From the NCBI GenBank assembly GCA_964016885.1, contig OZ024742.1, positions 341,186,001 to 341,250,000 on the forward strand: 64,000 nt of DNA, written 5' to 3'. The position numbers were made by a program, and so were the translations under genes. The stretch is from Eledone cirrhosa. Taxonomy: Eukaryota. This document shows, piece by piece, positions 1,942-59,663 of this stretch (its first letter is position 1; each line of letters opens with the position of its first letter). The notes under the pieces were generated by a model. It saw nothing but the letters and a program-made list of their open reading frames with translations. It did not search any database and was not told the origin of the DNA.

Positions 1942-4269
<2,328 letters not shown>

Positions 4270-9571: not shown

Positions 9572-9603
9572 TCCTTTCAAACTTACCCCGTTTCTCATCC
9601 AAC

Positions 9604-12396: not shown

Positions 12397-12659
12397 ATTG
12401 AGGAGTGGGAAAACTGAGAGAGGGTGCTTGCCCTGGTGGTCAGGATGGCCGTCGTCTTTTTGTGAGGTTTTCGCCACGAGTGACCCTCGGAGGTTTTCCC
12501 CTTTTTGGGAAATTTTTGTTGTTTTAATTTTTTTTTTATTTCTAGCCCGATTTTGTTATAACCTGTTTACACGACCAAAACCCACTTTTTATCGTCCTGT
12601 ACTGTTCTGTGCCGTCTCTGTTTTTCTTCGTGTTAGCCCTTGTGGCCAATAAAGAATCG

Positions 12660-15900: not shown

Positions 15901-18275
15901 CCGCCTCCCATTCCCGGCCGGCTAACAGATGCAAAGATCTGATCGTCGTCGAAAATGGGGGCTAGTGCGCGCGTGTCGGAAATACTGGTCTCGCTGACGG
16001 CAATTACAACCATTTCTAGAGACCTGAGGTCGTTGAGCAGGTGACCCTGCTTCCAGGACGATCCCAGGCCTCGAACATTTAAACTTCCTACTCTTAATAC
16101 GGCCAAGTTGGCAGGTTAAAAAGAGAGAGGAAGGTTTACTTACCTTCCGGGTTCTTGTGAAGTTCGGGCGGTTCGACCTCCATTCTTTTGGGAACCCCTT
16201 TAAAATTCTTGAAGTGGGTTTTACGTTCGGGGTTCCCAAGTCCCGAGGAAAGGTGTCTCGTATATCTTTGTATAAATCGAGCGACATTCGCACCAGAAAC
16301 AAATCTTCCGGCACGCGAAATGTGCTCGATTTAAACATTTCCTCCTCTTTTTGTATATTTTCACTTGGTGCTACGAAGGCCATCAATTCCTTGTTGGCCC
16401 TCCTGACGAGCACGAAGTTTTGTATGTTTTGTTGGTGTGATTTTATTTGTTCGCGTGGCTGTGGTGGTGATGGTTTTGGTGGTGTTGTTTCGGTTGTGTC
16501 TGTGTTTGTTGTGAGTGCGGTGTCTGTGGTTTCAGATGTTTGTGTGTGTCTTTGTTCTTGCGTTTGTTTAGGTTGTTTGCGTTTGGGGGATTCTGGTGAT
16601 GGTGGTGTTGATGTTGGTGTTATTGGAGAGATATTTGCGTGGGTGGTGTCTGCATTTTTTATTGTGGGTGATTTTGTGCTTTATTGAGTTTTTCTTTCCT
16701 TTTTGTGTTTCCTTTTTTGTATATTGGGGGATTTTGGTTTTCCCTCATCTTCACTACTGGTAGATGAGGGTTCTGTGTCTGTAAGTATGTCTGTGTGTGT
16801 GTTTATGTTTTTATTGGTGTGTGTTTTGGGGGGGAGGGAGAATTTGACAACTTTCCTCGTTTCCCCCCTGGGTGGTCAATGTTGGTGGTGGTCTTTCTAT
16901 TGGTGTTGTTGTTGGTGGTTTTGCCGGTGCTGGTGTTGGTTGTGGTCCTCTCTCCGGCGTCGGCAGCAGTGGAGCCTTTCGACCCCTTGCTTCTTTTAAC
17001 AGTTGAGGGCAGAAGGCTCGCAAATGGGTTTTTTCCCCACAAACAAAACAATGCGGTCTTTTGCCCTCGGTCATATGAATGACCGTCCTATTCTGAAGGC
17101 GGATGTGGTCCGGGATTGTCTTCACATTCTCGGGCCTGATCTGGAGAAGGATCTCCAGGTCAACCCCGGACGAGTCCTCTCTGACCGTTCTGGTCACTTC
17201 TATCGGGACGGTATCCGTCTCCTCCACAATCACACATCCCAGAAGCCACCACATGTCAAGTCCTGGTGGGATTCTGTGAATGCGGAGAGGGGCCGTTCTT
17301 TTTCCCATGTGGGAGGGGTACATTATGACCTTGCTGGTTTTGCAAGGAGTCATAGCGTGTTTCATAGCGAGGGCTTCTGACTTGAACAGTACCGAAATGG
17401 TGCCTTACTGTCTGCCCGTCGCTATGTATTCGGAGTCTTCTCTGATGCACCTCAGCGTGACTTCGACATTTGATTGTGGGATTAAAGCTGCTCTTTTGGT
17501 TTGTGCTGAGATGCATCTATAATGCACCGTTCTGCGCTCCACTGCCTCAATAGCTTCTACCGGGACAGTTAAGTTGGCCCAGGTTTGCTCCTGCTTGATG
17601 AACTTCCAGGCCTGGGCCAACTTTTCATCTTTGTTTGAGAGGTCCATGTTGAAGCATGGCCTCATTTTTTGCTGCCGCCGCAGCGAAAGTGTTGTTGTTG
17701 TTGTCGTTGGGGGTGTTGTTGTTGTTGTTCTTGTTGGTATTGTTGTTATCACTGTCGCTGTTATCATTGTTGTCTTTGGTGCCGCCGTTGTTCTCGGTGC
17801 AGTTGGTATTGTTGCTGTTGGTGTTGTCGCTGTTTGTTTTCATGTTAGTGGTGTTGATATTGTTGTTGCATTTGTCATTATTTCTGTTATCTGTATTTTC
17901 GTTGTCGCTGTTACTGTCATTTTTGTCAAAATTAGAGTTCTCAGTGTTGTTATCATTGCTGTCTTTGTTCACATTGTTTGTAGTGGTGTTTGTTGTATCA
18001 ATTTCTGTTAATTTCGCCGTAGCGCTCCTCTCAACTTCAACGTCGTTGTCGCAAGACAGCAGACATATCGCTGGGGGCGTGGCTCAGCCATGTTTTTTTT
18101 GTTGTTTTTTTTTCTCGATAATATTTTAAAATGTAAAAAATTTCAAATATTTGGGCCAAAAGGCCCAAATATTATTCTTTCCCCTTCACAGGGCAAATTC
18201 CAAGGACTTGTATGCCTTATATAACAACAAAAAATAAGTTTTCACAGGTAAATAAATAAACTTACGGGAGCGAGT
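12976..18275 (-). mobile_element. L1/Tx1-clade LINE copy B, full span, decayed, divergent subfamily
   Basis: ORF1 starts at 18091 (CFVCGEKTHLRAFC). ORF2 starts at 16106 (GSLNVRGL, SVRQGCPLS, AYADD, CPRC..DETVLHAL..C). The 5' UTR matches copy A and the flanks are AAT-rich. Confidence 0.92.
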
Positions 18276-27552: not shown

Positions 27553-30500
27553 TTTTCTTTATTAACCACAAGGGTTTACATAAAGTAGACATTAAGGACA
27601 GTACAGGACAATACAGGACGGCACAAATGGGCATTTCTGCGTGTAAAAAAAAACAGCGGATGAAATAAAATAACAAAGAAAAATTCCCCAATAGGGGGGA
27701 GACTTCCGAGGGACATTTGTGGAGAAGGCCCATTCATTCGGGCCATACTTGCTTCTCTCACCCATCTTTCAACAAAATGCTGGGAACAGAGCACTTCCCT
27801 CTCTACCCTGATTTTCCTTTTCAAATGAAATTTGAAAAAGTTAATCAGGGCATCACCGAAGAGGTAAGTGCTCGTCTTCAGCCCTTTCAAACGTGTCCAC
27901 CATACTATCTCTTTCGCCATGGCCACCAGACAGATAAAAACTGCCTGCCCTTCCCGGCTAAAGGAAGAGGGCGGGGCAATCCTCACGATGGACTCAGCTG
28001 ATAGCTGGATCCGTCCTACACGTGACAGCAGGTGTTCGACATAAACCCACAAGTCAGCAATGCTCGGACACTGGACGAGTGCGTGCAGGACGGTTTCGTC
28101 GCCCTGTGCGCATCTCGGACTGCCCGGCTGACGGCACGTCCATGCCTGTAAAGTTTATCCCGAACTGGCAAAGCACCCCGGTAGCACTGCCAGGCCAGGG
28201 ATTTCTGGAAGTTGTCCATAGGCCCCGGCCCGAAAGTCCTTCCGAAGAGATTGGCTAGTTGATTTTCGTCGACGCCTAGAGTTTCTCCAAGTACGTCGTC
28301 GCTCTTCCCCTCCACTAATCCTCTATAGAACGCCAAGGTGGAGTTTCCACCGATCACATTGCCCGATTGGTCGAGGGCTGTGAGCGCCTGAAGACATTCC
28401 AGTCTCCAAGCGCTCCCTCTCGGTCTTCGCTTGACCCAGGACTGCAGCTCCGTCAAGGAGACGAGCTGGGGAAAAACGCGTCTAGCAAACGGCGACCACA
28501 CCTGATCACCGTCGAGGAAGAGGTGGAGATGTCGTAGCCTGAGCGCGTGTCTGCGCATCATCAGCCACGGCATGCCCAGCCCTCCACGTAACGGGTGTTG
28601 ACAGCAGATGGACCGCCTGACCATCGGGGCGCGTCCCTTCCACAAGAAGCGAAAGAGCAAACGCTCCAGCGCAGTCAGGCGGGGCTTATGACAAGGTACG
28701 ACAGTCAGGCGGTAGTAGATGACGGACGCGATGTACGCGTTAGCCACCTCCGCTCGACCTTTCAGGGATAGCTTCCTCTCGGCCCATTTCTGGGTGAGAG
28801 AAGCCACCCTGCTCGTCACCTCGTCCCAGTTTTTGTCCGCCTGGAGGTCTGGACCGAACCAGACCCCTAGCAATTTAACCGGTCCGTCTGTCCAGCGCCC
28901 GACGACGCTGTTGGACGACATGGACCAGCCTCGCCAGGTGCCGAGCTGCAGGCCCACTGACTTTTCCTGGTCGATCATTGCTCCTGTCACCGCTTCGTAT
29001 TCTCTTAGTGTAGTGCCGCTCGCCTCGATGTGTTTGGCGTTCGACACCACTACGGTGACATCGTCGGCATATGCTGACACGGATCTTCCGCATCCTAGTT
29101 CGCGCGGGATCCCCCTCAACGTCTCCAGTTTGTGCAGTAATGGCTCGAGAGTCAATACGTACAATAGGGACGAGAGGGGACATCCTTGGCGGACCGAGCG
29201 CATGATGTTGAACGGTTCCGAAAGGTGACCGTTCACTCTCACTACAGAGCAGATGTTGCTGTGCATGGCAGTGATCCAGCCTCTGAAGACGGGCCAAAAG
29301 CCAGCCGCCCTCAGGACTGCCTCTAGGTAGCGATGGTCGACTCTATCGAAGGCTTTCGACTGATCTAAATTGATCAAAGACCCACCCGTGCCAGGTTCCC
29401 TAGCTACCCTCTCTACGATGTATCGCATGAGGTGGAGGTTGTCGTGGATGGATATGTCGGGAATGGCGCATGTCTGTGCCTCTCCCACCAGACCACCAAC
29501 GACAAGCGCCAACCTCTTTGCTAGCACCTTGGCCAAAATCTTGAACTCTGTGTTTAGCAGAGTTATGGGCCTAAAATTATCTATGTTATCCCCCTTGTTC
29601 GGATCCTTTCTCAGCAGCGCCACCGCTCCTCGGCTCACAGAGCTGGGAATTCTCCCGTTCTGTTGCCAGTTGCAGTAGACGTCCGCCAAGAGGCCTCCGA
29701 ACAAGTTTGGCATTTGTACGTAAAGTTCATAGGGCAGACCATCCAAACCAGGCGATTTACCCCTTGTGCAACTAGTCATTGCATCCCGTACTTCAGCGGT
29801 TGTTATCGGCTTTTCGCAACACTCCGCCTCAGTGGCCGAAAGCCGCGGCAGTCCGTCGAGGTAGACACTAAAGTCCATCCCTCGATCCGGCCCGCCACTG
29901 CCCCCGAACAGTTGAGCGAAGTGTCGCTGAAAAGCTTCACACATTTGCCCGGGATCGAGTAGCATGCGCCCGTCGTGGTCCACCAAAGACCGGATCGTGG
30001 CTTTGTTGCCACGACGCGCCTCCGCCACTCGGGCCCATTGAACGGCTTTCGTCCCCTCGTGTCTGAGAGCACGCACCCTAGCTCTGACAACGCAGCCTTC
30101 GTGCTTTGCATTGAAGAATTGGTCAAGGGCCAATTTCGCCGCAAGTACGTCGGTCGCGATGCCTATTTTTCTCTATTGCTAAAGTCTTACTAAACCAAAT
30201 GGACTCTATTCTAATTGCTCTTTTCAGAGCAAACCACCACTTGTTGTTGACGATGGCCCCCGTCAACGCCCGCTTAACTAGTTCGCTAATCCGGTCTCTG
30301 TAGGCCTTGCGCGCTGGTAAGGACGCGTTTAGCTTCCAGTAGCCGGGTCCTCGTCTATGAAGCCTATCTAAGTCAAGCACACAGATCACGAATTTGTGGT
30401 CCGTGTAGCTGACTATCTTGAATTGTGGACAGCCTATGCTAGACCTATCTATTTCCCTACAAAATACTCTATCTAGATATGATCTGGATGACCCTATGCG

Positions 30501-32735
30501 ATTTGTCCAAGTCCACATTGGTACATTCGGGAAATCCATTCGGTACCTGTCAGACAGTTCAAAACGTCTGAGCAGGTTGGTGAGACTCTTGCACCCTCCT
30601 TCCCTATCCACTAATCCCACACAATCCCAGCGTGCATCTAAGATCCCGTTCCAGTCGCCCACTAACACTAAAGAGCGGGACGTTCCAAGAAAGGTCTCCA
30701 GACGGCGGAAGAAATCAGGCCGCCCTGCTCCTGTCGGGGCATAGACGGCCACTAACCTGAAAGCTTGCCCGTCTCCGCTGGTCACGTCCAGCACCACCAA
30801 CTTACCTTCTGGGTCCAGGAAGATGGCCCGTATGGCAAGATCCAAACCTCTCCGAAAAAGCACAGCAACTCCTCCCCCCCGATCCCGGACGGCTGGGAGA
30901 TGCGTACACATCGTAGCCGCCGAAGATCGGTGCGAAAGCCTGTGCTTCGGAGATTCTGGTCTCGCTGATGGCCACTACATCTATGTTTAGTGACCTGAGG
31001 TCGTTGAGCAGGTGGCCCTGCTTCCATGACGACCCCAAGCCACGCGCATTTATGCTGCCTATTCTGAGTGAGGTCATGTTGAAAAGGAGTGGAAAAGATG
31101 GGAAAGACCACTTACCTTACTTCTCGTAAGGGAAGGATGGTTTTTCCATCCTTTTCACTGCTTGTGGCCTCCTCAGGAAGGATGTCCTTATAAATCCTCC
31201 TGGAGAGTGCTTGTCGGAAGTTTCCGATGTCTTTGGGGAATTTTTGTTTTAGTGTCATGTACGTTTTCTGTGTGATGCGAGTGATTTGTATGTGTGGAGG
31301 TGGTGTGAATTTTGGGGTTGTTGTGTAGTCTTTTTCTGTGATGCTGGTGTTGTGTTGGATGTAGTGTAATAATTGCTTGTTGTTCAAATTTAATGCTGTG
31401 TAGTGTGTATCGTTTTGGTTGTTTTCTTTTGTTTGCGTTTGTTGTGGGTTTGTTTCTGTTTCGCATTTTGGTGACTTTTGTGGTGTAGGTGATGGTGGTG
31501 TTGGAGTTAATGATGGTGATGGTGTTGGTGTTTGGGTTGATGGGGTTGGTGATGCTGGTGTGGATGGTGGCATATCTGTCCTAACTTTTTTGTTTCTTAG
31601 TTTATTTGTTTCCCTCTGTATTTTGTTTCTGGAGGGGGAAGGAAGAGAATTTTTTCTTTTTTGGTTTCTTTTTTTTTTTCCGGATATCGTTTCCCACTCC
31701 TCGTCGTCACAATCTGTCTCCAGTTGTGATAGGCCGGGGAGTGGAAAATCCTCCACAGGCGTTAGTTTTGGTTGTGGCGTGGTGGATGGTGTAGGCGCTG
31801 GTGCTAGTTCTGAAGCGTTGGGTGGTGGTGGTGTTGGTTTTGCTGGTGGTGGTGGTGGTGTTGGTTTTGCTACTGTTGCTGGGGTTGTTGCTGTTATAGT
31901 TGCTTCTGTTGTTGCTGCTACAGTTGTTGCTGCCATCTCTGCTACTGGTGGTGTTGATGGTTGTGTCACTGGGGTGGGTAGGAGAGGTGGCCTCAACCTT
32001 TTAGCCTGATGGCAGAAAGCCCTTAGGTGGGTTCCTTCACCACAAACGACACACCTAGGTCTTTTGCCCTTGACAATTACCGTGAGGTGGCTGCCGTCAG
32101 TGAGGTCTATTACCTCTGGGATCTCCTCAATGCTATTTTTGGTCCGCTTGGATCAGGAGCTCCATCCCAGATCCGGACCAGTTCTCCTGCTTTTCTTTTG
32201 CTATTGCTATTATTTTCGTGTTGGCTTCGATGCCGGCGAGGACAGCCGCTATTAGCCAGGGAATTTTGATGGCCGGTGGAACGTGGGTCACCCTGATCTT
32301 TACGAGTCTCTGGCCACAATAGCTTGGGACGAGTGTGAAGTCGTCACTTCTTAATGGGGCCATGGAGTGTTCTCTAGCCTCCTCTGGTGTTTCAAAGAAC
32401 ACGTCCATGGTTCCATACTTTTGCCCACGTCTGATGTGGGTTTTTCTTGCCCACACATGTCCCAAAGCTATTTGGATTTGGGACTCGGATGCCCGTTCCA
32501 CTCGGCGCGATTTTACATTTATTGTTCTATACGACACGGTGCATAGGCGCCGATGCTCCATTTTATTAGGTGGGGGGTGAGGCTGACCCTGTACCCATCT
32601 TTCTTTACCATTTGTTTGGCATTTTCTAAATCCTCCTGAGTTACCGTAAATGCTTCGAACTGTTTTGCTACTCTGGCGAAACTGAGGGGGGGGGGGGGTT
32701 ATAATGTCATTGTTGTTGTTGTTGCTATCGTTAAT
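27551..32735 (-). mobile_element. L1/Tx1-clade LINE copy C, 5'-truncated in ORF1
   Basis: ORF2 31077-27730 is broken by frameshifts and a deletion near 30165, and is nearly identical to copy D. ORF1 remnants lie at 32700-31112. Confidence 0.94.
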
Positions 32736-33942: not shown

Positions 33943-36900
33943 TTACAGATATATACTCAGAGTCGGCCCATTCACTCGGGCCATTCTTGCTTCTCTCACC
34001 CATCTTTCAACAAAATGCTGGGAAGAGAGCACTTCCCTCTCTACTCTGATTTTCCTTTTCAAATGAAATTTGAAAAAGTCAATCAGAGCATCACCGAAGA
34101 GGTAAGTGCTCGTCTTCAGCCCTTTCAAACGTGTCCACCATACTATCTCTTTCGCCATGGCCACCAGACAGATAAAAACTGCCTGCCCTTCCCGGCTAAA
34201 GGAGGAGGGCGGGGCAATCCTCACGATAGACTCAGATGATAGCTGGATCCGTCCTAAACGCGACAGCAGGTGTTCGACATAAACCCACAAGTCAGCAATT
34301 TTCGGACACTGGACGAGTGCGTGCAGGACGGTTTCGTCGCCCTGCGCGCATCTCGGACATGCCCGGCTGACGGCACCTCCATGCCTGTAGAGTTTATCCC
34401 GAACTGGCAAGGCTCCTCGGTAGCACTGCCAGGCCAGAGATTTCTGGAAGTTGTCCATAGGCCCCGGCCCGAAAGTTCTTCCGAAGAGATTGGCTAGTTG
34501 ATTTTCGTCGACGCCTAGAGTTTCCCCAAGTACGTCGTCGCGCTTCCCCTCCACTAATCCTCTATAGAACGCCGAGGTGGAGTTTCCACCGATCACATTG
34601 CCCGATTGGTCGAGGGCTGTGAGCGCCTGAAGACATTCCAGTCTCCAGGCGCTCCCTCTCGGTCTTCGCTTGACCCAGGACTGCAGCTCCGTCAAGGAAA
34701 CGAGCTGGGGAAAAACGCGTCTAGCAAACGGCGACCACACCTGATCACCGTCGAGGAAGAGGTGGAGATGTCGTAGCCTGAGCGCGTGCCTGCGCATCAT
34801 CAGCCACGGCATGCCCAGCCCTCCACGTAGCGGGTGTTGACAACAGATGGACCGCCTGACCATCGGAGCACGTCCCTTCCACAAAAAGCGAAAGAGCAAA
34901 CGCTCCAGCGCAGTCAGGCGAGGCTTAGGACAAGGTACGACGGTTAGGCGGTAGCAGATGACAGACGCGATGTACGCGTTAGCCACCTCCGCTCGACCTT
35001 TCAGGGATAGCTTCCTCTCCGCCCATTTCTGGGTGAGAGAAGCCACCCTGCTCGTCACCTCGTCCCAGTTTTTGTCCGTCTGGAGGTCCGGACCGAACCA
35101 GACCCCTAGCAATTTAACCGGTCCGTCCGTCCAGCGTCCGACGACGCTGTTGGACGGCATGGACCTGCCTCTCCAGGTGCCGAGCTGCAGGCCCACTGAC
35201 TTTTCCTGGTTGATCATTGCTCCTGTCACCGCTTCGTATTCTCTTAGTGTAGTGCCGATCGCCTCGATGTGTTTGGCGTTCGACACCACTACGGTGACAT
35301 CGTCCGCATATGCTGATACGGATCTTCCGCATCCTAGTTCGCGCGGGACCCCCCTCAATGTCTCCAGTTTGTGCAGTAATGGCTCGAGAGTCAATACGTA
35401 CAAGAGGGACGAGAGGGGACATCCTTGGCGGACCGAGCGCATGATGTTGAACGGTTCCGACAGGTGACCGTTCACTCTCACCACAGAGCAGATGTCGCTG
35501 TGCATGGCAGCGATCCAGCCTCTGAAGACGGGCCCAAAGCCAGCCGCCCTCAGGACTGCCGCTAGGTAACGATGGTCGACCCTATCGAAAGCTTTCGACT
35601 GATCTAAATTGATCAAGGACCCACCCGTGCCAGGTTCCCTAGCTACCCTCTCTACGATGTATCGCATGAGGTGGAGGTTGTGGTGGATGGATCTGTCGGG
35701 AATGGCGCATGTCTGCGCCTCTCCCACCAGACCACCAACGACAAGCGCCAACCTCTTTGCTAGCACCTTGGCCAAAATCTTAAACTCTGTGTTTAGCAGA
35801 GTTATGGGCCGGAAATTGTCTATGTTATCCCCCTTGTTCGGATCCTTTCTCAGCAGTGCCACCGCTCCTCGGCTCACAGAACTCGGAATTCTCCCGTTCT
35901 GTTGCCAGTTGCAGTAGACGTCCGCCAAGAGGCCTCCGAACAAGTCTGGCATCTGTACGTAAAGTTCATAGGGCAGACCATCCAAACCAGGCGATTTACC
36001 CCTTGTGCAGCCAGTCATTGCCTCCCTTACTTCAGCGGCTGTTATCGGCTTTTCGCAACACTTCGCCTCAGTGGCCGAGAGCCGCGGCAGTCCGTCGAGG
36101 TAGACACTAAAGTCCATCCCTCTACCCGGCCCCCCGCTGCCCCCGAACAGCTGAGCGAAGTGTCGCTGAAAAGCTTCACACATTTGCCCGGGATCGAGTA
36201 GCATGCGCCCGTCGTGGTCCACCAAAGACCGGATCGTGGCTTTGTTGCCACGACGCGCCTCCGCCACTCGGGCCCATTGAACGGCTTTCGTCCCCTCGTG
36301 TCTGAGAGCACGCACCCTAGCTCTGACAACGCAGCCTTCGTGCTTTGCATTGAAGAATTGGTCAAGGGCCAATTTCGCCGCAAGCACGTCGGTCGCAATG
36401 CCTTTGCTAAGCGCCTCGTCTAATTTTCTAACTAGTTCTCCCTCTGCTCTATTTTTCTCTATTGCTAAAGCCTTACTAAACCTAATCGATTCTATTCTAA
36501 TCGCTCTTTTCAGAGCAAACCACCACTTGTTGTTGACGATGGCCCCCGTCAACGCCCGCTTAACTAGTTCGCTAATCCGGTCTCTGTAGGCCTTGCGCGC
36601 TGGTAAGGACGCGTTTAGCTTCCAGTAGCCGGGTCCTCGTCTATGAAGCCTATCTAAGTCAAGCACACAGATCACGAATTTGTGGTCCGTGTAGCTGACT
36701 ATCTTGAATTGTGGACAGCCTATGCTAGACCTATCTATTTCCCTACAAAATACTCTATCTAGATATGATCTGGATGACCCTATACGGTTTGTCCAAGTCC
36801 ACATTGGCACATTCGGGAAATCCAATCGGTACCTGTCAGACAGTTCAAAACGCCTGAGCAGGTTGGTGAGGCTCTTGCACCCTCCACCCCTATCCGCTAA

Positions 36901-37362
36901 TCCCACACAGTCCCAGCGTGCATCTAAGATCCCGTTCCAGTCGCCCACTAACACTAAAGAGCGGGACGTTCCAAGAAAGGTCTCCAGACGCCGGAAGAAA
37001 TCAGGCCGCCCTGCTCCTGTCGGGGCATAGACGGCCACTAGCCTGAAAGCTTGCCCGTCTCCGCTGGTCACGTCCAGCACCACCAGCTTACCCTCTGGGT
37101 CCAGGAAGATGGCCCGTATGGCGAGATCCAAACCTCTCCGAAAAAGCACAGCAACTCCTCCACCCGATCCAGGACGGCTGGGAGATGCGTACACATCGTA
37201 GCCGCCGAAGATCGGTACGAAGGCCCGTGCTTCGGAGATTCTGGTCTCGCTGATGGCCACTACATCTATGTTTAGTGACCTGAGGTCGTTGAGCAGGTGA
37301 CCCTGCTTCCATGACGACCCCAAGCCACGCGCATTTATGCTGCCTATTCTGAGTGAGGTCAT
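33943..37362 (-). CDS. Intact Tx1-like ORF2: APE endonuclease + reverse transcriptase + Zn finger (1139 aa)
   Basis: GSINARGL, ISET, VGDWN, YLDRVF, TDHK; DQSKAFDRVDH, SVRQGCPLS, AYADD, LLGV; CPRC..DETVLHALVQC. Confidence 0.97.
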   Translation of the reverse strand: MTSLRIGSINARGLGSSWKQGHLLNDLRSLNIDVVAISETRISEARAFVPIFGGYDVYASPSRPGSGGGVAVLFRRGLDLAIRAIFLDPEGKLVVLDVTSGDGQAFRLVAVYAPTGAGRPDFFRRLETFLGTSRSLVLVGDWNGILDARWDCVGLADRGGGCKSLTNLLRRFELSDRYRLDFPNVPMWTWTNRIGSSRSYLDRVFCREIDRSSIGCPQFKIVSYTDHKFVICVLDLDRLHRRGPGYWKLNASLPARKAYRDRISELVKRALTGAIVNNKWWFALKRAIRIESIRFSKALAIEKNRAEGELVRKLDEALSKGIATDVLAAKLALDQFFNAKHEGCVVRARVRALRHEGTKAVQWARVAEARRGNKATIRSLVDHDGRMLLDPGQMCEAFQRHFAQLFGGSGGPGRGMDFSVYLDGLPRLSATEAKCCEKPITAAEVREAMTGCTRGKSPGLDGLPYELYVQMPDLFGGLLADVYCNWQQNGRIPSSVSRGAVALLRKDPNKGDNIDNFRPITLLNTEFKILAKVLAKRLALVVGGLVGEAQTCAIPDRSIHHNLHLMRYIVERVAREPGTGGSLINLDQSKAFDRVDHRYLAAVLRAAGFGPVFRGWIAAMHSDICSVVRVNGHLSEPFNIMRSVRQGCPLSSLLYVLTLEPLLHKLETLRGVPRELGCGRSVSAYADDVTVVVSNAKHIEAIGTTLREYEAVTGAMINQEKSVGLQLGTWRGRSMPSNSVVGRWTDGPVKLLGVWFGPDLQTDKNWDEVTSRVASLTQKWAERKLSLKGRAEVANAYIASVICYRLTVVPCPKPRLTALERLLFRFLWKGRAPMVRRSICCQHPLRGGLGMPWLMMRRHALRLRHLHLFLDGDQVWSPFARRVFPQLVSLTELQSWVKRRPRGSAWRLECLQALTALDQSGNVIGGNSTSAFYRGLVEGKRDDVLGETLGVDENQLANLFGRTFGPGPMDNFQKSLAWQCYRGALPVRDKLYRHGGAVSRACPRCAQGDETVLHALVQCPKIADLWVYVEHLLSRLGRIQLSSESIVRIAPPSSFSREGQAVFICLVAMAKEIVWWTRLKGLKTSTYLFGDALIDFFKFHLKRKIRVEREVLSSQHFVERWVREARMARVNGPTLSIYL

Positions 37363-37397
37363 GTTTAAAATAGAGTGGAAAAGATGGGAAAGACCAC

Positions 37398-39472
37398 TTA
37401 CCGTACTTTTGGTAGAGGAGGGATGGTTTTTACATCCCTTTTCACTTGATCGTCTGGTGAAGGGACCGTTGAATCGTCCCTTCGGCTGGTCGTCGGCTCT
37501 TCTAAGAGAATGTCTGAGTATACTCTTCGATTGATGGTTCCTCCTAGGTCCCTGAAATCACCAACTGCGTTGGGGAATTTCGTTTTAATGTTTGTGTATT
37601 GTTTCTGTGCTATTTTTAGCAGTCTTATGTTAGTTGGCGTTTTGATTGGTGCTGGTATTATGTAGTCCTTTTGTGAAATGTCTGTGTGTTCAATTATGTA
37701 AGTCATTAGTTTCTTGTTGTGTGTATTTATTGCCGTGCATTTGTTTTTCTGGGGGTGGGGTGTGGTTCTGCTATTTTCTTGTCGTTGTTGCTGGGTGTGT
37801 GTGTTTTGTTGTTGTGTTTGCGATGTTGGTGCTTGTGGTGGTGGTGTTGAAGGTGTTGTTGGCGGTGGGGTTGTCGCCGGTGGTGATGGTGGTGCTAGTG
37901 TGGGTGGTGATGGTGTTGGTGTTGTTGCTGCTGTGGGTCTCTTTGCAGTAGACTTTACCCTTTTCTCATTTCTTTCCTCCCTTTTCAAAGGCGACGATGC
38001 GCTGCTTCTGCGTTTGTGCCTTCTTGCGACCTTTTGCCATCCCTCTCCCACCTCACACTCCATGTCTGATTCTGTGAGGTCGGGGAGGGGTACCAGCTCC
38101 ACTCTTTCACTTGTTGTTGGTGATGTTTGCACTGGAGTCTCTGTTGCAGCTGCATTTGGTATTGCTGTTGTTGTTGTTAATATTTCCACTGCTGCTGCTG
38201 TTTTTGATTTCCGTGGCGTGGGTATGGGTGCCACGGACCTATCGTTCCTGGTTGCCGCTTGTCCTGTTGCTGGTAGCCGTGGAGCCGGATTCGGAAGGAG
38301 GGGGGTTTTCTCCTTTCTCAGGGTCTTCTCGTTGCAGAAGGCCCTGAGGTGAGTCTTCGATCCACAGCGAAAGCATTTCGGGCGTTTGCCCTCAACACTT
38401 ATGGGCAGTTGAGTGCCGTTATCGAAGTCTATCACATCCGGGATAGCTTCGATGCACTCCTGGTTGGTTTGGATTAGCATCTCAATGGAGGAGCCGACCC
38501 AATCTTCTCTTACTTTTTTCTGTACTTGCAGTACAGTTGTTTTGTCCTCGATTCCGATTAGGACAGACGCGGCCAGCCAAGAAGGGGTCATTCCGGGGGG
38601 GGGGGGGCGTGGGACAGTTTGACCCTCACAATTTTTTGCCCGCAGTAGGAGGGCACCAACACCATTTCCTCGCTCCTTAGGGTCACTACTGATTGGGCCT
38701 TTGCCTCCTGGGGTGTGGCAAAAAGTACGTCTACGGTGGCATATTTTTTGCCTCGGGTGATGTGCGTTTTCCGCTGCCACACAGACCCCAAGGCTTTTTG
38801 TATTTGGGCCTCTGTGGCTCTTTCCACCCTACGGGATTTTGTACTTACTGTACGGTACGTGACCGTACAGTGCTCTTGGGTTTTGAAAAATTTTTCCGCT
38901 GCCTTGCAGATTGCTCGGTGTCCGTTCTTTGTCACCATCTTCTTCGCTTCCTCTAATTCCTCATTTGTTATGAGGATTGTTTCCAAGTTTTTCGCAATAC
39001 CTGCAAATGAGATTGGTTTTTCTCTGCTGTTGTTGTTGTCGTCAGAGCTGCTGGTACTTTTGTTGTTGCTGCAGGTACTACGACTACTGCCTCCGCCGCT
39101 GTTGCTGCTAATGCTGTTGTTGTTTATGCTGCTGGTGATGCTGTTGCGGCTGCTACTGTTGTTTTCATTGTCACTGTTGCAGTTGTTATTACGGCTGCTA
39201 CTGCTATTATTCCTGACGTCAGACGAATGAACTGGGTTTTCGTATTTCCCGCACACCTGTTTCGTCGCTGTCGTCGTCGTCGTGGAGAAACCTTGCACGC
39301 TTTGCACGAGACTTTTCTTTTCTTTCGTCACTTGCGAAAGAGAAGGGAGGGAGAGAGACACATTTAAAGAAGGGAGGGAGAGAGACAATCTTCTCTCTGC
39401 TGTAGTGATGATTGAGGAAGAAGAAGACGGAATGAGTGGGAGTGACGTATGAAATTTCTTTTTCGTAGCCAT
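37398..39472 (-). CDS. Tx1-like ORF1 (~690 aa), single frameshift in a G13 run at 38595-38607
   Basis: Two overlapping ORFs join at the homopolymer. Contains the CFRCGSKTHLRAFC knuckle and the aaacaacATGGCT start shared with copies A and B. Confidence 0.88.
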
Positions 39473-42766: not shown

Positions 42767-43074
42767 ATAATAATAAATTTGAAGACTAAAATCCCAAGAG
42801 GGCTCAATAAGGATAAATATATATCAAATATATAAGAACCGTAGAGCAAATATTTATTAAAATAACAGATTAAAGTTTAAGCAAAGAATCACTGCTTTCA
42901 CCCTTAACGCACCCTATTGATTTAACCCAATTGGTCAGTAGCTTTTGCCACAGCCTATCACGCGCACGCGTATTCTTTCCCGCGTTTGAATTTTTCCCCA
43001 TAACGGCATTCCTATGTTTTAACGACAATACAACTTTCTCCGGCTTAGCCTGTTCCCCCCCCTTTTGGAACTTG

Positions 43075-43108
43075 CCCCCGTTGATTGGCGTGAGCCCGAA
43101 ATATTGGG
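43075..43108 (+). ncRNA. Minimal hammerhead-like motif, CCGUUGA core, within a PLE 3' UTR remnant (42890-43250)
   Basis: ccc CCGTTGA t tggc-gtga-gccc GAAA ta TT ggg. A homologue lies at 47842. Confidence 0.55.
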
Positions 43109-43249
43109 ATTAAATCTCCACTACGGTAACCCTTCTACCTTTGTTTTGTTTTCCTTTTTCGTTTCTCTCAATTTTCACTTTTCTCCTATTTCTCACTCAC
43201 TTCCTACCTCGAGATTTCCCATCTGCATTGTTGTGGCTTTCTAAACTAC

Positions 43250-44337: not shown

Positions 44338-44494
44338 TTGAAATATATATAATGAAATAAATATGGTTTTATAAATATAGTTTCCATTTATTAATATCGT
44401 ATATATGTATATATATATTTTTAAAAATGCAACACGTGGTTCGAATCATTCACAGATTTGCATTTGCTCTGTAAACACAGATACTTATTTTCTT

Positions 44495-44587
44495 CTCCTT
44501 TGGTGAACATCCAAGAATTTAACTGCTGTGATTTACGGATTAATAGGTGAAATATATTTCTTACTTAAAGAAATATATACAAAGGAG
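44495..44587 (+). ncRNA. Type I hammerhead motif with G3-C8 core (GUGAACA)
   Basis: ctcctttg GTGAACA tcc...gga ttaa...ttaa a GAAA tata TA caaaggag. Stem I is 8 bp. Same family as 57774 and 58323. Confidence 0.8.
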
Positions 44588-44849
44588 ATTAATCATTTAA
44601 AAGGTATCTATATTTGAAGTTCTAGTCAAACTTTAATTAGTTACCTACCTAGCTAAGTGTGCTTACATTCTTTACACATTATTCCCTGTGATTGTTTCAT
44701 GTATTTATTTTATATATATATATATCAATCTATTTCTAGCTGATATATATATATATATATATATATACAGGTGGAGGGTGGGGGTATCCCGGGTTCAATC
44801 TGGGGTAACCACAGTAAGGTACTCAATACATAGCAGAGTATAAATGTTT

Positions 44850-45049: not shown

Positions 45050-48000
45050 TACACCCGTATATCACCACCACACTTTCTTCCCTATCTTACTTACCCCACC
45101 CCTATTAACCCCACCTCACCCTCCTACCTTGAGTCTACCTTTATATATAATGTGTTTGCTACTGAAAAGTTAGTTCTTGTCTGATGACCCAGTGATAAAC
45201 AGGCGAATGTCCAGAATAACAAGTCTTAAATATAGATTTAGCCAACGAGAACATCGACACTAACGAACAGACGGACCAGAACAACTTGGAAAACAACAAT
45301 GTAACAACTGCCACCGCCGCATCCACCAACACCGAGCCACACCTCAACGATGCGACGCACCTGGTCACCGACCTAACCGACACTCTCACGAGCGACGAGC
45401 TGAAACTCCTACACCTCGGACCCAAGTTCATCGTCTCACAACGACACGACGACAGACTCAAACTCGACATCGAGGCCAACTTTTGTCGAGCCGCTTACCA
45501 ACTTAAATGCGTGACCACCATCAACAGTGCCAAAGAAAATAACAGCGCCCACGCAACCCACCCCAAGTTCCTCAATTACCACCCCGACAAACCACTCCAC
45601 CCCCCATCCACCAACCACGAACTCGATACTAAACTCATCAGGCTTAAACACTCCATCTCGGATATACTTCACAAACACACACACACACGCACAACACACA
45701 ACTTCACCAAATCTTAACTCACCACTCTCTCCAACCTAAAATCGAAGAACCTCATCTACCTCCCCTCCGACAATGGAAAAGAATTCTGCGTCATCAGCAG
45801 AGAGGCCTACAAGACCCTGGCCCTCCAACACCTTGACGATGACAACCTCTACTCCAAGGTCATGTGAATCACTCCCGCGCAAATAGAAGAGCACATCAAC
45901 GCCGCCTGGACCAACATCTGCGACTGGCGGAAGCTCCCGAAGAAGCTGAGATACAACCTCCTCACGAGGCACAGCAGACTACCCGCCTTCTAACACCTCG
46001 TGAAAACACACAAACAGGGACCCGACCTGAAGATCAGGCCCATTGTATCGAGTGTGGAAGGACCACTCTACAAAATTTCATGGCTCCTAGCCAGAATACT
46101 CAAACCCATCTTAGACACCTTGCCGGGACACGTTTTCAGCTCCGAGGAGGTGTTGAAGCGCCTGCATCAAATGGATCCCGACACCAGAAAGAATATCAGA
46201 TATGCCTTCAGCCTTGATGTAATCGCTCTCTACACCTCGGTCTCGGCACTCCCGGCCATTAATATACTGATGGAACGCATCCAATCCACCGACCTACACT
46301 GCTTCGGGCTCACCACCACTGACATCTACCAACTCCTATCCATCGTCGTCGACAACATCTACTTCGGATTCCTTGACCAAACATACCAACAAACCTCGGG
46401 ACTGCCCATGGGATCAAGCCTGTCGGGTGTGCTAGCGATCTCTTACCTGGACAGCCTCGAGCGCAAGGCACTCAACGCCTGCCACCCCAACGCCGTCGCC
46501 TTTTTCTCAAGGTAACGTGGACGATATCCTCATCCTCACATCTTCCCAAGACATGGCGAACAGAATCTATGAGACGTTCAACAATACGGACGAGAACATT
46601 GACTTCAGTGTTGAACACTCCAACGACGACGGGTCACTTGCCCTCCTCTACTTCCGAATCAACATCGCGGAACAGGGAGGGATCCACTGCAACTTCTACC
46701 GAAAGGCAGCCTGCAGGGACCTGTTCGTCCACTACAATCCGCCCTCCCTAACAGTGCCAAAAGCGGATACATCACGAACGAGATCGCGCGAATCAAAAAC
46801 AGATGCAGCGATCCCGCGAGTGGTGTCACTCATACCAAGCGATTCCTCGAGGTGCTGGAGACGAACGGGTACCCTAACTCGCTCACAGACAGAGTAGGAG
46901 ACACCAGATACAAGAGACAGAAAAACACCCAAGGCAAGTGCTTCCTTAAAATGCCACACCAGGGCGAGAATACCACCAACGCTATCCGCAAGGCTATACG
47001 GAGGGAGGGCCTCGACATCCACCTGGCCCACTCGGGCCCCTCCCTGCGAAGATGCCTCTCCAGGAAACCCGGGAAATCAACTGACGCGTGCTCCCTCAGA
47101 GACTGCTGATGTGCCATGCAAACTGTTGCCTACGCACATACGTCGTGTATAAGATAGAATGTAACAAGTGCAACCAATACTATATAGGTAGCACAATCAG
47201 GCCGTTGCACATCCGGATCAAGGAGCACACTAACACCAGGACCTCGTCTTTCCGGAAACAAAGCCAAATGCGGAAAAAAAGACGGAAGCCCTATTGTCAC
47301 AATTCTAGCGACAGAAAGAAACGTCGGCACATTACGTATCAAGGAAGCACTTTGGATCAAACGCCTAGGGCCACAATTAAACAACCAATCCGAGAGAAGC
47401 GAAATGAGGTGGTTGGTTTAAGTTAACAAACGATGCAGCACACACACACACACACACATGCGAGACAGCAACACACGCACACACACACACACACACACAG
47501 TAGCATTCGACCATACGAACATACACTGCCAATAGAGAGGAACAAGGCAACAACACACGCACACACACACACACACACACACTCAAGCGAGACAACTACA
47601 CACGCACACACACACAGAGTAACATTCACCAAACAGGCAGAGAATACTATGGACTGACAGCTAGCGCCACCCTACTCCCACAATTGAAAGAACTACTTCG
47701 GCCGCTGACCTCTGCTTGACCGACCCCATTTCACGCGCACGCGCGCTCTGCTGGATACCTCAAATATTCAAAACAACTAACAGCGGAGGACACGTTTCGC
47801 ACCTTTCCGAGAGACAACCTCCCCCCCCCCCCGGAAAAAAACCCCAGTTGATGGATGTGAATCCGAAATATATAGGGACAATTAAATCTCTCCCAAGGTA
47901 ACTCTATCTCGTGTTATTTTTATTTTTATTTTTATCCTTTACGCTCTTTCTTTCATTTCTCTACACGCTACAGTCTTATACACGCCACGCATCTCAACAT

Positions 48001-49911: not shown

Positions 49912-51910
49912 AGGATTAGCCAAGATGCAGTGATGGTTAATTACTACACTGGATATGGTTGACGTACGGTAAGAGTTTACTCTACGAGTTATGGAAGAAT
50001 TGTTCAAGAAACTTAGTTCCTGATCCTTCAGTATTCCGGAGTGTATATAAATAATGAATAATAACAGGTAGACATCATAAAAAGGTAGTTTATTCCGTGT
50101 GCTTACAAGTGTTTCCACGGTGGTACTGCAGCCTAGTTCCGCTACGTGCAAATTCACAAGTATTTGCAGAACTCGAATATCCAATGCTGTGACCACTGTT
50201 TCCTCAGAGCAGAATGGTAAATATACAATGTAAAAACCCTTAAGTGGGGTTGTTGGGGAAGATAGAGTGGAACAGGAAGAGAGAAAAGTAGGGAAGATGG
50301 AGAGAGAAGGAAGGATATGCAGGGGTTGGGGAAGTAGGAGAGAGTGGCTTGTAGATATCTTAATCAAAATGTTATGGTAGGGGTTTTATTAGTTACTTTT
50401 GGAGAGATGCGTAGATAGTTGAGGTCGGAATTATTTATTGCCCCAGAGGTCAAGTTCATAGATGTTGAGAGGGAGGTAGGTCAAAGGTGAGAGAGAGAGA
50501 GTGTAATGGATGTAGAGAGAGATATATAGGTAGAGAGGGGACAGATAAAGTATATGTGGTGAGTGAACTTTTGGTTTTGTAGTAGTAATCTAGGAATTGT
50601 ACTGAGTTACCATGTATAGTGATAAGCAGTGTATTGTCTTGTAGTGTGGGGGAGAAGAGAAGGTTGTTAGCTAGAAAGTGGTGTTGTAGTTACGGGTTCG
50701 AATGTTAAGTTATTTTATAGTGAGAGAATTTAGCTTTTAGTTTGTGGTTGCAGTATAATGATCGTTCAATTCTATCGTTAAGTAGTTTGTTTTGGGATTT
50801 TAGTATGTAAAATAGCTCAAGGTTACATAACCTGCAGTACTTCAAACCACTCCGATATGCATTTGCGCTGGAAAGTATATCCCATTTTAAGGTGAACTGT
50901 TGGTTGTGTTCACGGAGTTGCCAGGTCTTGTTGGCGAGCGTGGTCACAAAACGGTGATTCTGATGTTTGATTGAGAATCGATGACGGTACCAGCGAGATT
51001 TAAACGATGTGGTGGTAGATCCGATATAATACCATTTCTGGTCGTCCGATTCAACCGTGCATTGGTAAACAATGTTGGACTTTAGGCATTCATTCTGCAA
51101 TGGACATCTTTCAGGTAGATGGCAGTTACATGCTTTGTTGTGGGTAGCGGGTATACCATGGATAGGTTGTGATAGCGGTACAGGTGGGTTGTGCAATACT
51201 CGTCTCCCATTTAGTGGTTGGGAGGCAGATATTGCGTTCTGCCCATCTGTTACTAAAATGTTTTGTTTTGTAGAGTTGTTTAATTGCCTTAAGTTAAGTT
51301 TTTTTATGTATGCTTCAAGGTTTCGTGCCGTGGAGTATGATAGTCTAATAGTTTTGGAGTTCAGAATTTTGCTGTACTTATGGGAACTAGGGAAGTGTTT
51401 ATTGATTAATTTAAAGAATGAAAGAGATAGTTTTGTACTAATCGAGGCATTAAAAATAGGATTATACCAGATATACTTTCTACAACGTGATTTATTTGGT
51501 GGTGATCTTCTATTATTAGTATGTCTGGTAGTATAGTGTGTGTGTGCTTGTGTTTTAGTCACCCGGTTACGTATACCTTGATTACGTGTAGAGCTATGTG
51601 TGTTGTGGAAATTACTATCGATGTATTCTATTGTATCCCGGTGGTCAGCATTCCTTAATGCATTATTGTAGTATTCAGCATGTTCGCTAAAAATATCAGA
51701 GTTAGACGATAGGCGAGAGATTCTAAGAGAAATACTCCGGGGAACTGATTTGATCATGGAGAGTGGGTGGTTAGAGTTAAAGTCAATATACGTAAGGTTC
51801 TCATTTACCTTGTGGAAGGGTCGTATCTGTCCGGTATTTAAATTGTGGAAACACTTGTAAGCACACGGAATAAACTACCTTTTTATGATGTCTACCTGTT
51901 ATTATTCATT
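49906..51910 (-). mobile_element. PLE 3' portion (ORF 51845-50705) with long 3' UTR and short inverted pLTR (51845-51910)
   Basis: YIDFNSNHP, RISRLSS, IWYNP, KHFP..H.Y.KI.N..TIRLSYS, CNC....CPLQNECLKSNIVYQC, YIGST. Bases 51845-51910 mirror 50053-50118. Confidence 0.92.
50100..50211 (-). ncRNA. Type I hammerhead ribozyme with ~85-nt domain II
   Basis: tgct CTGAGGA a-acagtggt...accaccgt-g GAAA cacttg TA agca. Confidence 0.82.
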
Positions 51911-53549: not shown

Positions 53550-54904
53550 ACTTCCTTATATGGGAAGATTGTAGTTGTCAAGATGATTGGTTAAAATTTG
53601 TTGTAAACACAAAAAAGTCTATCATGGCATTTGGTGGGAGGTAGGGGTGGCTGAAGTTGCCTGTAGAACAATAGGGGAGTGAGTGGAGCGGTCAAGCGAT
53701 GAAAGTGATATGTATACAGCAGATTCTAAGCATAGTGTATGAAGTGGAGGAGTGAGGTTATAGAATAGATAAATCGAATGAGAGTAGGAGACAATAAAAG
53801 ATAATAGAAAGAAATACAAAAATATATAAAATTAGATTGTGAGAAATAAATAAAAAAAAATCACAATGCTATCTTACAATTACAGGTTAATAAGTTGAGA
53901 ATAGAAAAAACTTGTAGAAATTGAGTAGTACCAAAACTGATACAAAATTAAAGGGGTTTAACACGTCTGCTATAAGTAGCTAATTCTATCTTAAAATTAC
54001 AGGGGTGGAGGAACTGATGCTATAGAGACCCGATGGGCTGCATCGGGGTAGGCGAAAGGGGGAAAGCAGACGAGGAAGAAAATAGGGGCTTGAAGGAAGT
54101 GATAGGATGAGACAGGCCCTCAAGCGGAGTGACTTCCGTGGGGAGATATCCTTTTATCTAGCTTCCCTTAGCGGAACCAGCAGGCGACACCGCCGCTCAC
54201 GCAGCGTAACGTGGTTCAATCCTCTCCATAATGCCGAGGTGGGAACACCTATCGGGAAAATCTTCTTTAGACTCCTCGAAAAACACTTCCCATTACAACA
54301 CCGCTACCACAACATAATCAACAAAAACACCATCAAACTCTCCTACAGCACCACACCTAACTTCGCACAAAACATCGTCTCCTCAAACAACAAAAAACTC
54401 ACCCCTATGGAAGAAGTAACCTAGACATCAGTGGGGAGCCGTAACTGCCCTGTTAGATCTACGTGCCCCCCCCCCTCCAACAACAAATGCCGAGAACGTA
54501 ATGTGATCTACCAGTGCAACGTGAGGACGGACACCTCCAACAAAGCTTATATAGGATTAACCGCGTGTGACTTCAAGACCCGGCTCTACCAACACCGACA
54601 CACTTTCCGAAACCCGCTCCGGCCACATGCCATTACTCTTTCGGGCCACATCTGGGACCTCCAAAATAATAATATAACCAATCTCACTTGGAGCTTACTG
54701 TCCACAGCTAACTCTTACACGGGAGGACGCCGTCCGTGTAACTTATGCTCGGAGGAAACATTACAAATGGTGTTTTCGAAGGACCAACTCCTAAACAAGA
54801 AAGACGAACTGGTAACCGCATGCAAACACAGATTGCGTAGGACTTACCTCGCCCTCAAACCCCATAACGTCCCGGGTGGGTAGACAAGGGCTGATACCCC
54901 CCGC

Positions 54905-57326: not shown

Positions 57327-57610
57327 TGTTGTGGTAATGACATTACTACACTAACGAAACGTGCGTAACTACTCAATAAACGTAATGAAGACATAACATA
57401 TCGCACTTTTTATTATTATTACACTCTGCTTTGTTCTACGCATCTATACCAACTGGAAACTACACATCGAGTACTCATCTAGTGGACCTACAGTAACTTG
57501 ACGTCACATTCCCTAGATATATATTCCAAGCGTGATACTAATAAGAATTTCTGTTTTCCATCACTGTGTTTGTGTTGTCATTTCTTTAACTATATATATA
57601 TATATATATA

Positions 57611-58408
57611 TCAACTAGAAATTGATTGACATATATATATATATTTAAAATAAACATATGAAACAATCACAGGGGATAATTTGTAAAGTGTGTAATCACA
57701 CATAGCTAGGTACGTAACTAATTAAAGTTTAACTAGAGCTTCAAATATTACCTTTTAAAAAATGATTAATCTTCCTTGTGTATATTTCATTAAAGAAATA
57801 TATTTCAACATTAATCCTTAAAGTCACAGTAGTCAAGTCCCTGATCTTCAGCAAGGGAGAGGATTTAACTATTTGTGTTTACACATCAAATGCAAATCTG
57901 CGAGTGACCCATCGCACGTGTTGCAATTCTAAAACTAATAACAACATGCTAGCGTCATCCCAGTGGCGTGAATAGGGTGATCGACTGCTATAAATAGCAG
58001 CCGAGTCCTTTCAACTGAGTTAGTTCTACAATTAAGGAGCCGTGTATATATCCAAAATTAATTAAATTAAATTAGATTACGGGAGTCATGTCCGAGACAT
58101 GCGCCACACCCACTGTAGAATAAGCTCAAAGATTCCAATGAATAGATCCGAGCATTTTATATCAACTAGAAATTGATTGACATATATATATATTTAAAAT
58201 AAACACATGAAACAATCATAGGGGATAATTTGTAAAGTATGTAATTACACACAGCTAGGTAGGTAACTAATTAAAGTTTAACTAGAGCTTCAATTATTAC
58301 CTTTTAAAAAATTATTAATCTTCCTTGTATATATTTCATTAAAGAAATATATTTCACCATTAATCCGTAAAGTCACAGTAGTAAAGTCCTGGATCTTCAG
58401 CAAGGGAT
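57611..58408 (-). repeat. Tandem 1.45-mer of a 550-bp unit, each copy with an HHR (57774-57856; 58323-58405)
   Basis: tcaactagaaattgattgac occurs at 57612 and 58162. HHR: ccttg CTGAAGA tcc...gga ttaa...ttaat GAAA tata TA caagg (the first copy has CA instead of TA). Confidence 0.85.
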
Positions 58409-58716
58409 ATTTGGATATATAATTTTGGATATATATATATATATATAAAGGGAAAAAATGAAACAAAATTTAATTTCCCACTCTTAGTACGGCTGTTAAC
58501 TAAATATAAGTATGTACACATACATACATAAATGTATACAGACGTACAGTAGTATGTATATATATATACATACATGCACACACATATATATATATATGTA
58601 CGTATGGATTCACCGAACATTTATTATAATGCTCGGTGTGTTTGTAAACAAACATCCCGTATTAAGCCGTAGTGTCTAGCAAACATCGTTGCTCGTTTTT
58701 CAACACTGACAAAGGA

Positions 58717-58759
58717 ACGCTGTACTAGTTTCAAGCTTATTAGCTATCGTCAGCAACGT
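58717..58759 (-). ncRNA. Type I hammerhead ribozyme, canonical core
   Basis: acgttg CTGACGA t-agc-taataa-gct-t GAAA ctag TA cagcgt. Confidence 0.9.
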
Positions 58760-59443
58760 ATACGTTCCTGCCAGATTGTTGAACGTATATACTTACCTTA
58801 TGCATATTAACGGCTGAGTAGCCCAATTTGCAGATCGAGTGGGTTAATCGGCCGGGTGCACCGAAAACGATAAACGGAAAAAATGAAACGAAATTTCATT
58901 TCCCACTCTTAGTACGGCTGTTACTTAAATATAAGTATGTACACGTACATACATATATTTATACAGACGTACAGTAGTATGTATATATATATACATACAT
59001 GCACACATATATATATGTACGTATGGATTCACCGAACATTTATTATAATGCTCGGTGTGTTTGTAAACAAACATCCCGTATTAAGCCGTAGTCTCTAGGA
59101 ACCATCGTTGCTCGTTTGTTCAACACTGACAAAGGAACGAGCATTATAATAAATGTTAGGTGAATCCATACGTACATATATATATGGGTGCATGTCTATA
59201 TATATATATATATATATATACATACTACTGTACGTCTGTATAAATATATGTATGTACGTGTACATACTTATATTTAAGTAACAGCCGTACTAAGTGTGGG
59301 AAATAAAATTTCATTTCATTTTTTTCCGTTTATCGTTTTCGGTGCACCCGGCCGATTAACCCACTCGATATGCAAATTGGGCTACTCAGCCGTTAATATG
59401 CATAAGGTAAGTATATACGTTCAACAATCTGGCAGGAACGTAT

Positions 59444-59486
59444 ACGTTGCTGACGATAGCTAATAAGCTTGAAACTAGTACAGCGT
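59444..59486 (+). ncRNA. Type I hammerhead ribozyme, identical second copy
   Basis: acgttg CTGACGA t-agc-taataa-gct-t GAAA ctag TA cagcgt. Confidence 0.9.
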
Positions 59487-59663
59487 TCCTTTGTCAGTGT
59501 TGAACAAACGAGCAACGTTGTTTGCTAGAGCATTATAATAAATGTTCGGGCATTATAATAAATGTTCGGTGAATCCATACGTAGATGTATATATGTGTGC
59601 ATGTATGTATATATATACATACTACTGTACGTCTGTATACATATATGTATGTACGTGTACATA

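Follow-up and report, generated by a model that had tools for sequence, protein, structure and literature searches.

Can a natural hammerhead exchange both bases of the pair between core positions 3 and 8, and is such an exchange kept because the RNA has to cut itself? The question is raised by a repeat found in a 64,000-nt stretch of the Eledone cirrhosa genome (contig OZ024742.1), referred to hereafter as the window. Three homologous copies (82–94% identity) carry the motif: a GTGAACA core lies at 44503–44509 on the plus strand, and CTGAAGA cores lie at 58400–58394 and 57851–57845, both on the minus strand. In the standard hammerhead numbering, as used in PMC3884650 and PMC3088659, the 7-nt cores differ at positions 3 and 8 only, and the 44503 copy has G3-C8 in place of the canonical C3-G8 letters. 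Stem I reads CCTTG/CAAGG in the CTGAAGA copies and (T)CTCCTTTG/CAAAGGAG(A) in the 44503 copy, a compensated C-G to U-A change together with a longer helix. Re-location of the cores and comparison of the three copies confirmed the original prediction as to positions, strands, homology, the restriction of core differences to 3 and 8, and the compensated change in stem I.

The same prediction stated that 3 and 8 pair in the active conformation, in agreement with an article that also mentions a G3-C8 construct (PMC3884650). Rescue by a double swap in vitro, which it took as established, exists for engineered C3G/G8C ribozymes, although it is only partial: in the Anolis Poseidon element, single mutants are reported as dead and the double mutant as partly rescued (PMC11167929; reviewed in PMC8495972). 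The exchange at 44503 is the same pair swap, here natural and copied many times. Natural U3-A8 hammerheads have been published (Perreault et al., 2011, PMC3088659), with about 1300 matches described in Schistosoma (Cervera and de la Pena, 2014, PMC4209133). A natural G3-C8 form was not found in a literature search of incomplete coverage (including PMC6155905 and PMC6765202), and GUGA-type cores had no match in the 11 text supplements of PMC3088659, which apparently hold no searchable alignments. In the literature found, G3-C8 is described only as a laboratory mutant; a natural amplified form would be new, its priority being uncertain. The wider interest lies in a debate over the need for hammerheads in Penelope-like elements and animal retrozymes, fuelled by reports of poor cleavage in vitro and of mutants that insert (PMC4209133, PMC11167929, PMC8557442). 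In the one Penelope-like element reported as tested, hammerhead mutations were without effect on insertion in vitro (PMC11167929).

The 44494–44594 motif has the type I hammerhead topology, with three helices in type I order around the core. The 5′ strand of stem I (44494–44502) pairs with 44580–44588 over 9 bp. Core positions 3–9 (GUGAACA, 44503–44509) follow, with G3 at 44503 and C8 at 44508. Stem II and a large variable loop II occupy 44510–44548; here a U10.1-U11.1 mismatch opens the helix, and only two firm C-G pairs are left (44511–44512 with 44546–44547). G12-A13-A14-A15.1 and stem III extend over 44549–44578, 44552–44562 pairing with 44568–44578 over 11 bp, and the 3′ strand of stem I, together with the 3′ strand of a predicted pseudoknot, covers 44580–44594. 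Hammerheads cleave at an NUH triplet; by this rule and by its position in the fold, an AUA triplet places the predicted cleavage after A17, at 44579–44580. The motif is a likely self-cutting RNA.

A type I descriptor with positions 3 and 8 left free matched the 44503 copy (stem III of 11 bp) and the 58400 copy (stem III of 9 bp). It missed the copy at 57851–57845, in which stem II is damaged and C replaces U16.1. Rfam gave no hammerhead match over the window at E up to 1, nor over 44400–44700 at E up to 10, and the two CUGAAGA copies were likewise without a match. Four sequencing runs from one study (kind unstated, searched as contigs, and maybe from the assembly's own sample) cover the motif and have no other letter at 44503 or 44508.

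In 29 natural copies chosen to represent the sub-lineages, pairing held in 96.8% of 633 cells, as compared with 38–60% in slid controls; the rows are related, so that the shuffle figure is not a probability. Four of the nine stem I pairs had changed on both sides, and changes in stem III preserved G-U pairs. Stem II is weak throughout the family, consisting of U10.1-U11.1, in place of a G10.1-C11.1 opening, plus 2–4 pairs, and it weakens further, to two firm pairs, in the sub-lineage of the 44503 copy. Active natural hammerheads with a one- or two-pair stem II, U-U at 10.1-11.1 and pseudoknots have been described, the U-U start being a tolerated natural exception (PMC3088659), and the present family resembles them in its U-U opening of a weak stem II and its predicted pseudoknot support.

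That pseudoknot is predicted between loop II (44538–44544) and the strand 3′ of stem I (44588–44594), over 6–7 bp. Among the 257 of 297 copies that could be parsed, a pairing of at least 6 bp was present in 81% of G-C (n = 77), 69% of C-G (n = 45) and 94% of U-A copies (n = 63), as compared with 1–5% for a control stretch. Conservation extends over both strands, in contrast to the variable remainder of loop II; the changes seen are one-sided G-U changes, with no two-sided change. The four to five bases that follow UCC in loop II (window 44513–44520) are the most variable part of the unit among copies, as if many different source RNAs coexisted. In the minimum-energy fold of the 44503 copy, A9-U-C-C pairs with GGAU of loop II, an arrangement that departs from the catalytic fold, and the family-level z-scores of the three window copies were modest (−2.35, −1.75 and −0.67).

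The behaviour of positions 3 and 8 was then counted over the genome. A pattern with fixed flanks and A7 gave 133 + 1519 = 1652 matches, a pattern with positions 3–9 free gave 2325, and one with GAAA free gave 2521; reversed controls gave 0, 0 and 4, respectively, and the matches are not chance. The A7-fixed patterns leave out a GUGACCA lineage, which is captured once positions 3–9 are freed. Among the 1652 A7 copies, U3-A8 is the majority state (∼1194, by subtraction), followed by G-C (214) and C-G (159), with no A-U. Mismatches with a purine at position 3 were G-A (6), G-U (8), G-G (2), A-A (5), A-G (2) and A-C (3); those with a pyrimidine were C-U (3), U-U (4), U-C (9), C-C (5), C-A (16) and U-G (22). 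Watson-Crick pairs were thus present in 1567 copies (94.9%), as compared with 58% expected if the two positions were independent. The 85 non-Watson-Crick copies compare with 89 (tight clustering) or 124 (loose clustering) predicted by decay after insertion, with substitution rates taken inside clusters of at least four copies (283 rows, from a sample deliberately enriched for G-C, C-G and mismatched copies), and the unpaired classes were in fair agreement with the prediction cell by cell.

A pattern with R3, any N7 but A, and Y8 gave 282 further matches. The first 100 of these listed comprised 98 G-C copies (C7 in 90, U7 in 7, G7 in 1), one A-C, one G-U and no A-U. About 276 G3-C8 copies with another N7 are therefore added to the 214 with A7, making an amplified lineage of ∼490 copies, which is a lower bound as exact anchors were required. 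The 44503 core had been presented as a rare variant, and this part of the original prediction is not borne out. In the count it proposed of CUGAAGA, GUGAACA and single-mutant cores, GUGAACA was not unique to the one copy, and single mutants were not as common.

The remaining core positions were tallied by hand. Among the first 100 of the 2325 matches listed, all from one contig, 75 were U-A, 15 G-C, 5 C-G and 5 unpaired; N7 was A in 58, C in 24, U in 15 and G in 3, and G5 was altered in 4, A6 in 1 and A9 in 1, in scattered single copies. GAAA was intact in 96 of the first 100 of the 2521 matches listed, the four changes all being different; this tally overlaps the contig of the previous one, and the two are not independent. 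U4 G5 A6 N7, A9, G12 A13 A14, A15.1-U16.1 and H17 are all present in the family, and the pattern of conservation is the hammerhead's own: N7 is free, 3 and 8 are free only as a pair, and the rest is fixed. Przybilski and Hammann reportedly found in 2007 that any Watson-Crick 3-8 pair can cleave, the surrounding stems and loops setting the tolerance.

Two minor groups stand beside the three main states. U3-G8 is carried by five separate loci within a single U3-A8 subfamily (L178–L180, L184, L185, L189 and L190), twice in both partners of a pair; it makes up 7 of the 15 rows sampled from one cluster, in a sample enriched for mismatches, and may be a small amplified wobble lineage. A diverged sister subfamily, L270–L273 (G000:C1:51676618, 59726230, 63314206 and 86444268), has the core CCGAUGA, with U4 changed to C and a C3-G8 pair, and supplied 3 of the first 100 of the 2325 matches listed. 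In L270 (1–820), ∼30 nt of the repeat's upstream strand are reiterated in tandem directly 5′ of the CCGAUGA hammerhead, which suggests slippage during insertion.

Conservation of this kind might reflect a fold that is selected as a structure for a mobilizing protein, or one that cleaves only with the help of a protein, free self-cleavage not having been kept. The Anolis Penelope-type hammerhead is indeed reported to cleave only with the protein of its element, and its mutants insert in vitro (PMC11167929); the weak stem II and the competing fold of the 44503 copy point the same way. However, conservation agrees with the catalytic rules at each position (N7 is free, G5, A6, A9 and GAAA are fixed, and 3-8 varies only as a pair), the 3-8 pair belongs to the active conformation (PMC3884650), and a protein-binding site would rarely accept three different base pairs while fixing the catalytic bases. 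We therefore consider recognition by a protein an unlikely explanation, and selection on a self-cleaving fold the better one.

Trees built to follow the history of the pair drew on 297 unique near-full copies; each cluster contributed at most three paired copies per state. The more careful tree had 114 rows, including two duplicated outgroup rows, with columns 3 and 8 masked, and was rooted on the diverged C3-G8 sister family. The 25 G3-C8 rows group in a single clade (support 90/93; recovered in 181 of 200 bootstrap trees), and the 3-8 pair changes 4–7 times over the 200 bootstrap trees, the bootstrap being not fully settled. The clade arises from an unresolved base that holds U-A and C-G copies, both with a long stem I. 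The CUGAAGA copy of the window belongs to a C-G clade nested among U-A rows. Monophyly of the U-A copies was rejected on the careful tree (p = 0.008) and kept on a quick tree (p = 0.87), for which the unconstrained search had ended in a worse tree than the constrained one. The CUGAAGA copies of the window are probably a late return from U3-A8 and not the ancestor of GUGAACA, although template switching between copies could mimic such a return or inflate the number of pair changes. A direct swap from C3-G8 to G3-C8, as first proposed, is accordingly not established: G3-C8 arose from a background that contains C-G as well as U-A, and the clade to which the CUGAAGA copies belong is a later one.

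Whether from C-G or from U-A, G3-C8 is reached by two transversions with an unpaired state in between. No amplified unpaired intermediate was seen among the sampled copies, the small U3-G8 group being the sole sign that a non-Watson-Crick form was amplified. The idea that G3-C8 requires the longer stem I as compensation was rejected; a long stem I is already present in U-A and C-G copies, and hence preceded the swap. A mutual-information ranking, in which 3-8 came first, was set aside because its rows had been chosen as paired copies.

Tree rows had also been chosen as paired copies, and the same choice was built into a neutral simulation of two independent columns along the inner branches, under an equal-rate model and with the pair named beforehand. 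Of 2610 runs in which both columns took on three states, 5 kept a pairing of at least 95%, and such runs were fewer at higher rates. Selection on the 3-8 pair is thus well supported by the excess of paired copies, by mismatches at the level of decay, by three states on one tree and by the neutral simulation. It acted on source elements, while inserted copies decay neutrally. The selection for catalysis that the original prediction proposed therefore stands as far as the pair is concerned, and catalysis itself is inferred.

G3-C8 arose once, so that the argument for this lineage in particular depends on a single double transversion and on persistence. Its persistence covers roughly 0.1 changes per column, too short for significance by itself. 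A single origin would also be expected if G3-C8 were a crippled or inactive passenger, that is, a lucky double change in a successful source whose RNA was cut in trans or needed no cutting. Rescue in the laboratory is only partial (PMC11167929, PMC8495972), stem II is weaker still in the sub-lineage of the 44503 copy, and palindromic ATTAAT strands could permit dimers. Such a passenger would nevertheless have had to acquire two complementary transversions on exactly the two partners along a stem branch of ∼0.01 changes per column. It would then have given rise to ∼490 copies in successive sub-lineages, which differ in loop II, stem III and N7 (A, C or U) while 3-8 stays paired. With a divergence of 2.4–3.6%, the lineage is as young as other subfamilies. 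For these reasons a passenger seems very improbable, more so than recognition by a protein. We consider it likely, with good though not full confidence, that the natural G3-C8 copies were kept because the source RNA must cleave itself to be copied and remains active only with a paired 3-8.

The host of the motif is a dispersed, non-coding repeat of ∼550 nt, present in at least 2500 copies in the 3.0-Gb genome. The 44503 motif sits in a 5′-truncated copy of the G3-C8 lineage (44416–44745, plus strand), which ends at the family's fixed 3′ end and is followed by (AT)n. The two C3-G8 motifs lie in a partial tandem of about 1.5 units (57607–58410, minus strand), with a unit length of 547–549 nt; the motif with its core at 58400–58394 is intact. 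Directly upstream of this tandem is a short inverted repeat (58696–58883 with 59320–59507) with 99% complementary arms. Neighbouring cores in the sampled loci formed 39 head-to-head inverted pairs and 15 same-strand pairs; same-strand spacing was 514–599 nt in 11 of the 15, with 652 nt and three others outside this range. There are two fixed 3′ ends, (AT)n following 76 of 244 first ends and (TA)n following 80 of 112 second ends. The 5′ ends are scattered, lengths being spread over 0–500 nt among 88 G3-C8 copies. Six natural monomers had 33–34% G+C and no ATG frame over 73 aa, and when folded as circles gave z-scores of −1.8 to −7.9 against 15 shuffles each.

The repeat therefore combines the traits of a non-LTR retrozyme (a non-coding unit, one type I hammerhead, tandem copies) with those of mobilization in trans by a Penelope-like element (5′ truncation, an inverted 5′ partner, a fixed 3′ end, a (TA)n target); mobilization in trans is put forward from this insertion layout. 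It shares with metazoan non-LTR retrozymes a low G+C content, one type I hammerhead per unit, tandem copies and a proposed Penelope-like link, as these are described in Cervera and de la Pena (2020, PMC7229834) and Li et al. (2026, bioRxiv 10.64898/2026.07.22.740005). Unlike those retrozymes, which are ∼300 nt and form long arrays, its units are mostly dispersed, 5′-truncated or inverted, stem III has 9–11 bp, a pseudoknot is predicted, and the repeat is known from DNA alone. The minimal hammerheads described in Penelope-like flanks have the same type I topology and insertion layout, but almost no stem III, a long stem II and a dimeric form, in contrast to the long stem III and 2–4 bp stem II found here (PMC4209133).

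The same traits would fit an autonomous Penelope-like element of which the flanking repeat (pLTR), and not the coding body, was sampled, in which case there would be no separate retrozyme. Penelope-like elements are known to have truncated 5′ ends, to insert at (TA)n targets and to be accompanied by inverted 5′ partners (PMC8557442), and their flanks carry hammerheads (PMC4209133). In 279 loci searched with eight window or locus protein queries, however, no reverse transcriptase or GIY-YIG frame was tied to the repeat, unlike in the elements of PMC4209133, and in no copy did the repeat lead straight and reproducibly into a reverse transcriptase frame; tandem units succeed one another at ∼550 nt with no frame between. 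Penelope-like fragments do lie near some copies, at varied distance and in varied orientation. Two loci, L001 and L026, have a flank repeat nearby in common, but the intervening DNA differs, and they are thus independent. No sequence likeness was found between the repeat unit and the Penelope-like elements of the window. We regard the pLTR reading as improbable, if somewhat less so than the two alternatives above; it would alter the label of the element and not the 3-8 result. A metagenome scan gave 14 pattern matches, which were taken as chance: by profile search none was homologous to the repeat, and the stems were missing from all of them.

The window holds several other elements. A decayed Penelope-type element, with pieces of frame at 45220–47420, has in its flanks (43070–43115 and 47840–47882, plus strand) a conserved motif resembling a minimal hammerhead, also found in L026, L063 and L199: UUGAUG, then a 4-bp hairpin capped by GUGA, then GAAA. 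Its 5′ core is outside CUGANGA, with no clear A9, and it occurs in two versions with compensated changes in the hairpin. A 1611-nt inverted repeat (1–1611 and 2103–3713, 100% complementary) carries a Penelope-type reverse transcriptase and GIY-YIG frame in each arm, and is either an inverted insertion of very recent date or a fold-back artefact of the assembly. At 50705–51874 (minus) and 54086–54883 (plus) lie the 3′ parts of Penelope-like elements; these have a GIY-YIG-like domain at the C terminus and show no likeness to the hammerhead repeat. Related LINE copies are found at 33943–38828, 28016–32152 (minus), 14000–16700 and 8450–12400, with endonuclease, reverse transcriptase and zinc-finger domains; the frame at 33943–37557 is open for 1204 aa.

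Taken together, the sequence data suggest that the repeat probably needs a working cutter to spread. In the most probable mechanism, a source RNA would be transcribed through a tandem copy, and self-cleavage after A17 at two AUA sites would release a unit-length RNA, possibly then circularized. Reverse transcription and insertion at (TA)n would be carried out in trans by a Penelope-like element. Source elements with an unpaired 3-8 would be left unprocessed and would have no descendants. The weak stem II would be stabilized by the predicted pseudoknot, which may be why the core tolerates three different base pairs.

Like the natural U3-A8 hammerheads of PMC3088659 and of Cercyon in Schistosoma mansoni (PMC4209133), the repeat shows a compensated natural change of the 3-8 pair. 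Unlike those systems, for which U3-A8 is the one such change described, it mixes U-A, C-G and G-C in one family, has an amplified G3-C8 lineage and has probably returned from U-A to C-G. The boldest reading is that this is the first natural amplified G3-C8 lineage, in a family whose pair has changed four times or more between three Watson-Crick states, one of these changes being a return to C-G, while no broken core was ever amplified. On that reading, evolution would prove self-cleavage to be required for the spread of RNA circles mobilized by Penelope-like elements, and whole families would be missed by CUGANGA and Rfam searches; we give it an even chance. About nine-tenths of the copies in this family lack CUGANGA, and as the window copies have no Rfam match, ribozyme censuses probably undercount. 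With U-A, C-G and G-C set in almost the same background, the family is an allelic series made by nature, in which natural G3-C8 would be the counterpart of the classic laboratory rescue experiment. That a pair of the active state has been kept through three identities argues for selection on the catalytic fold.
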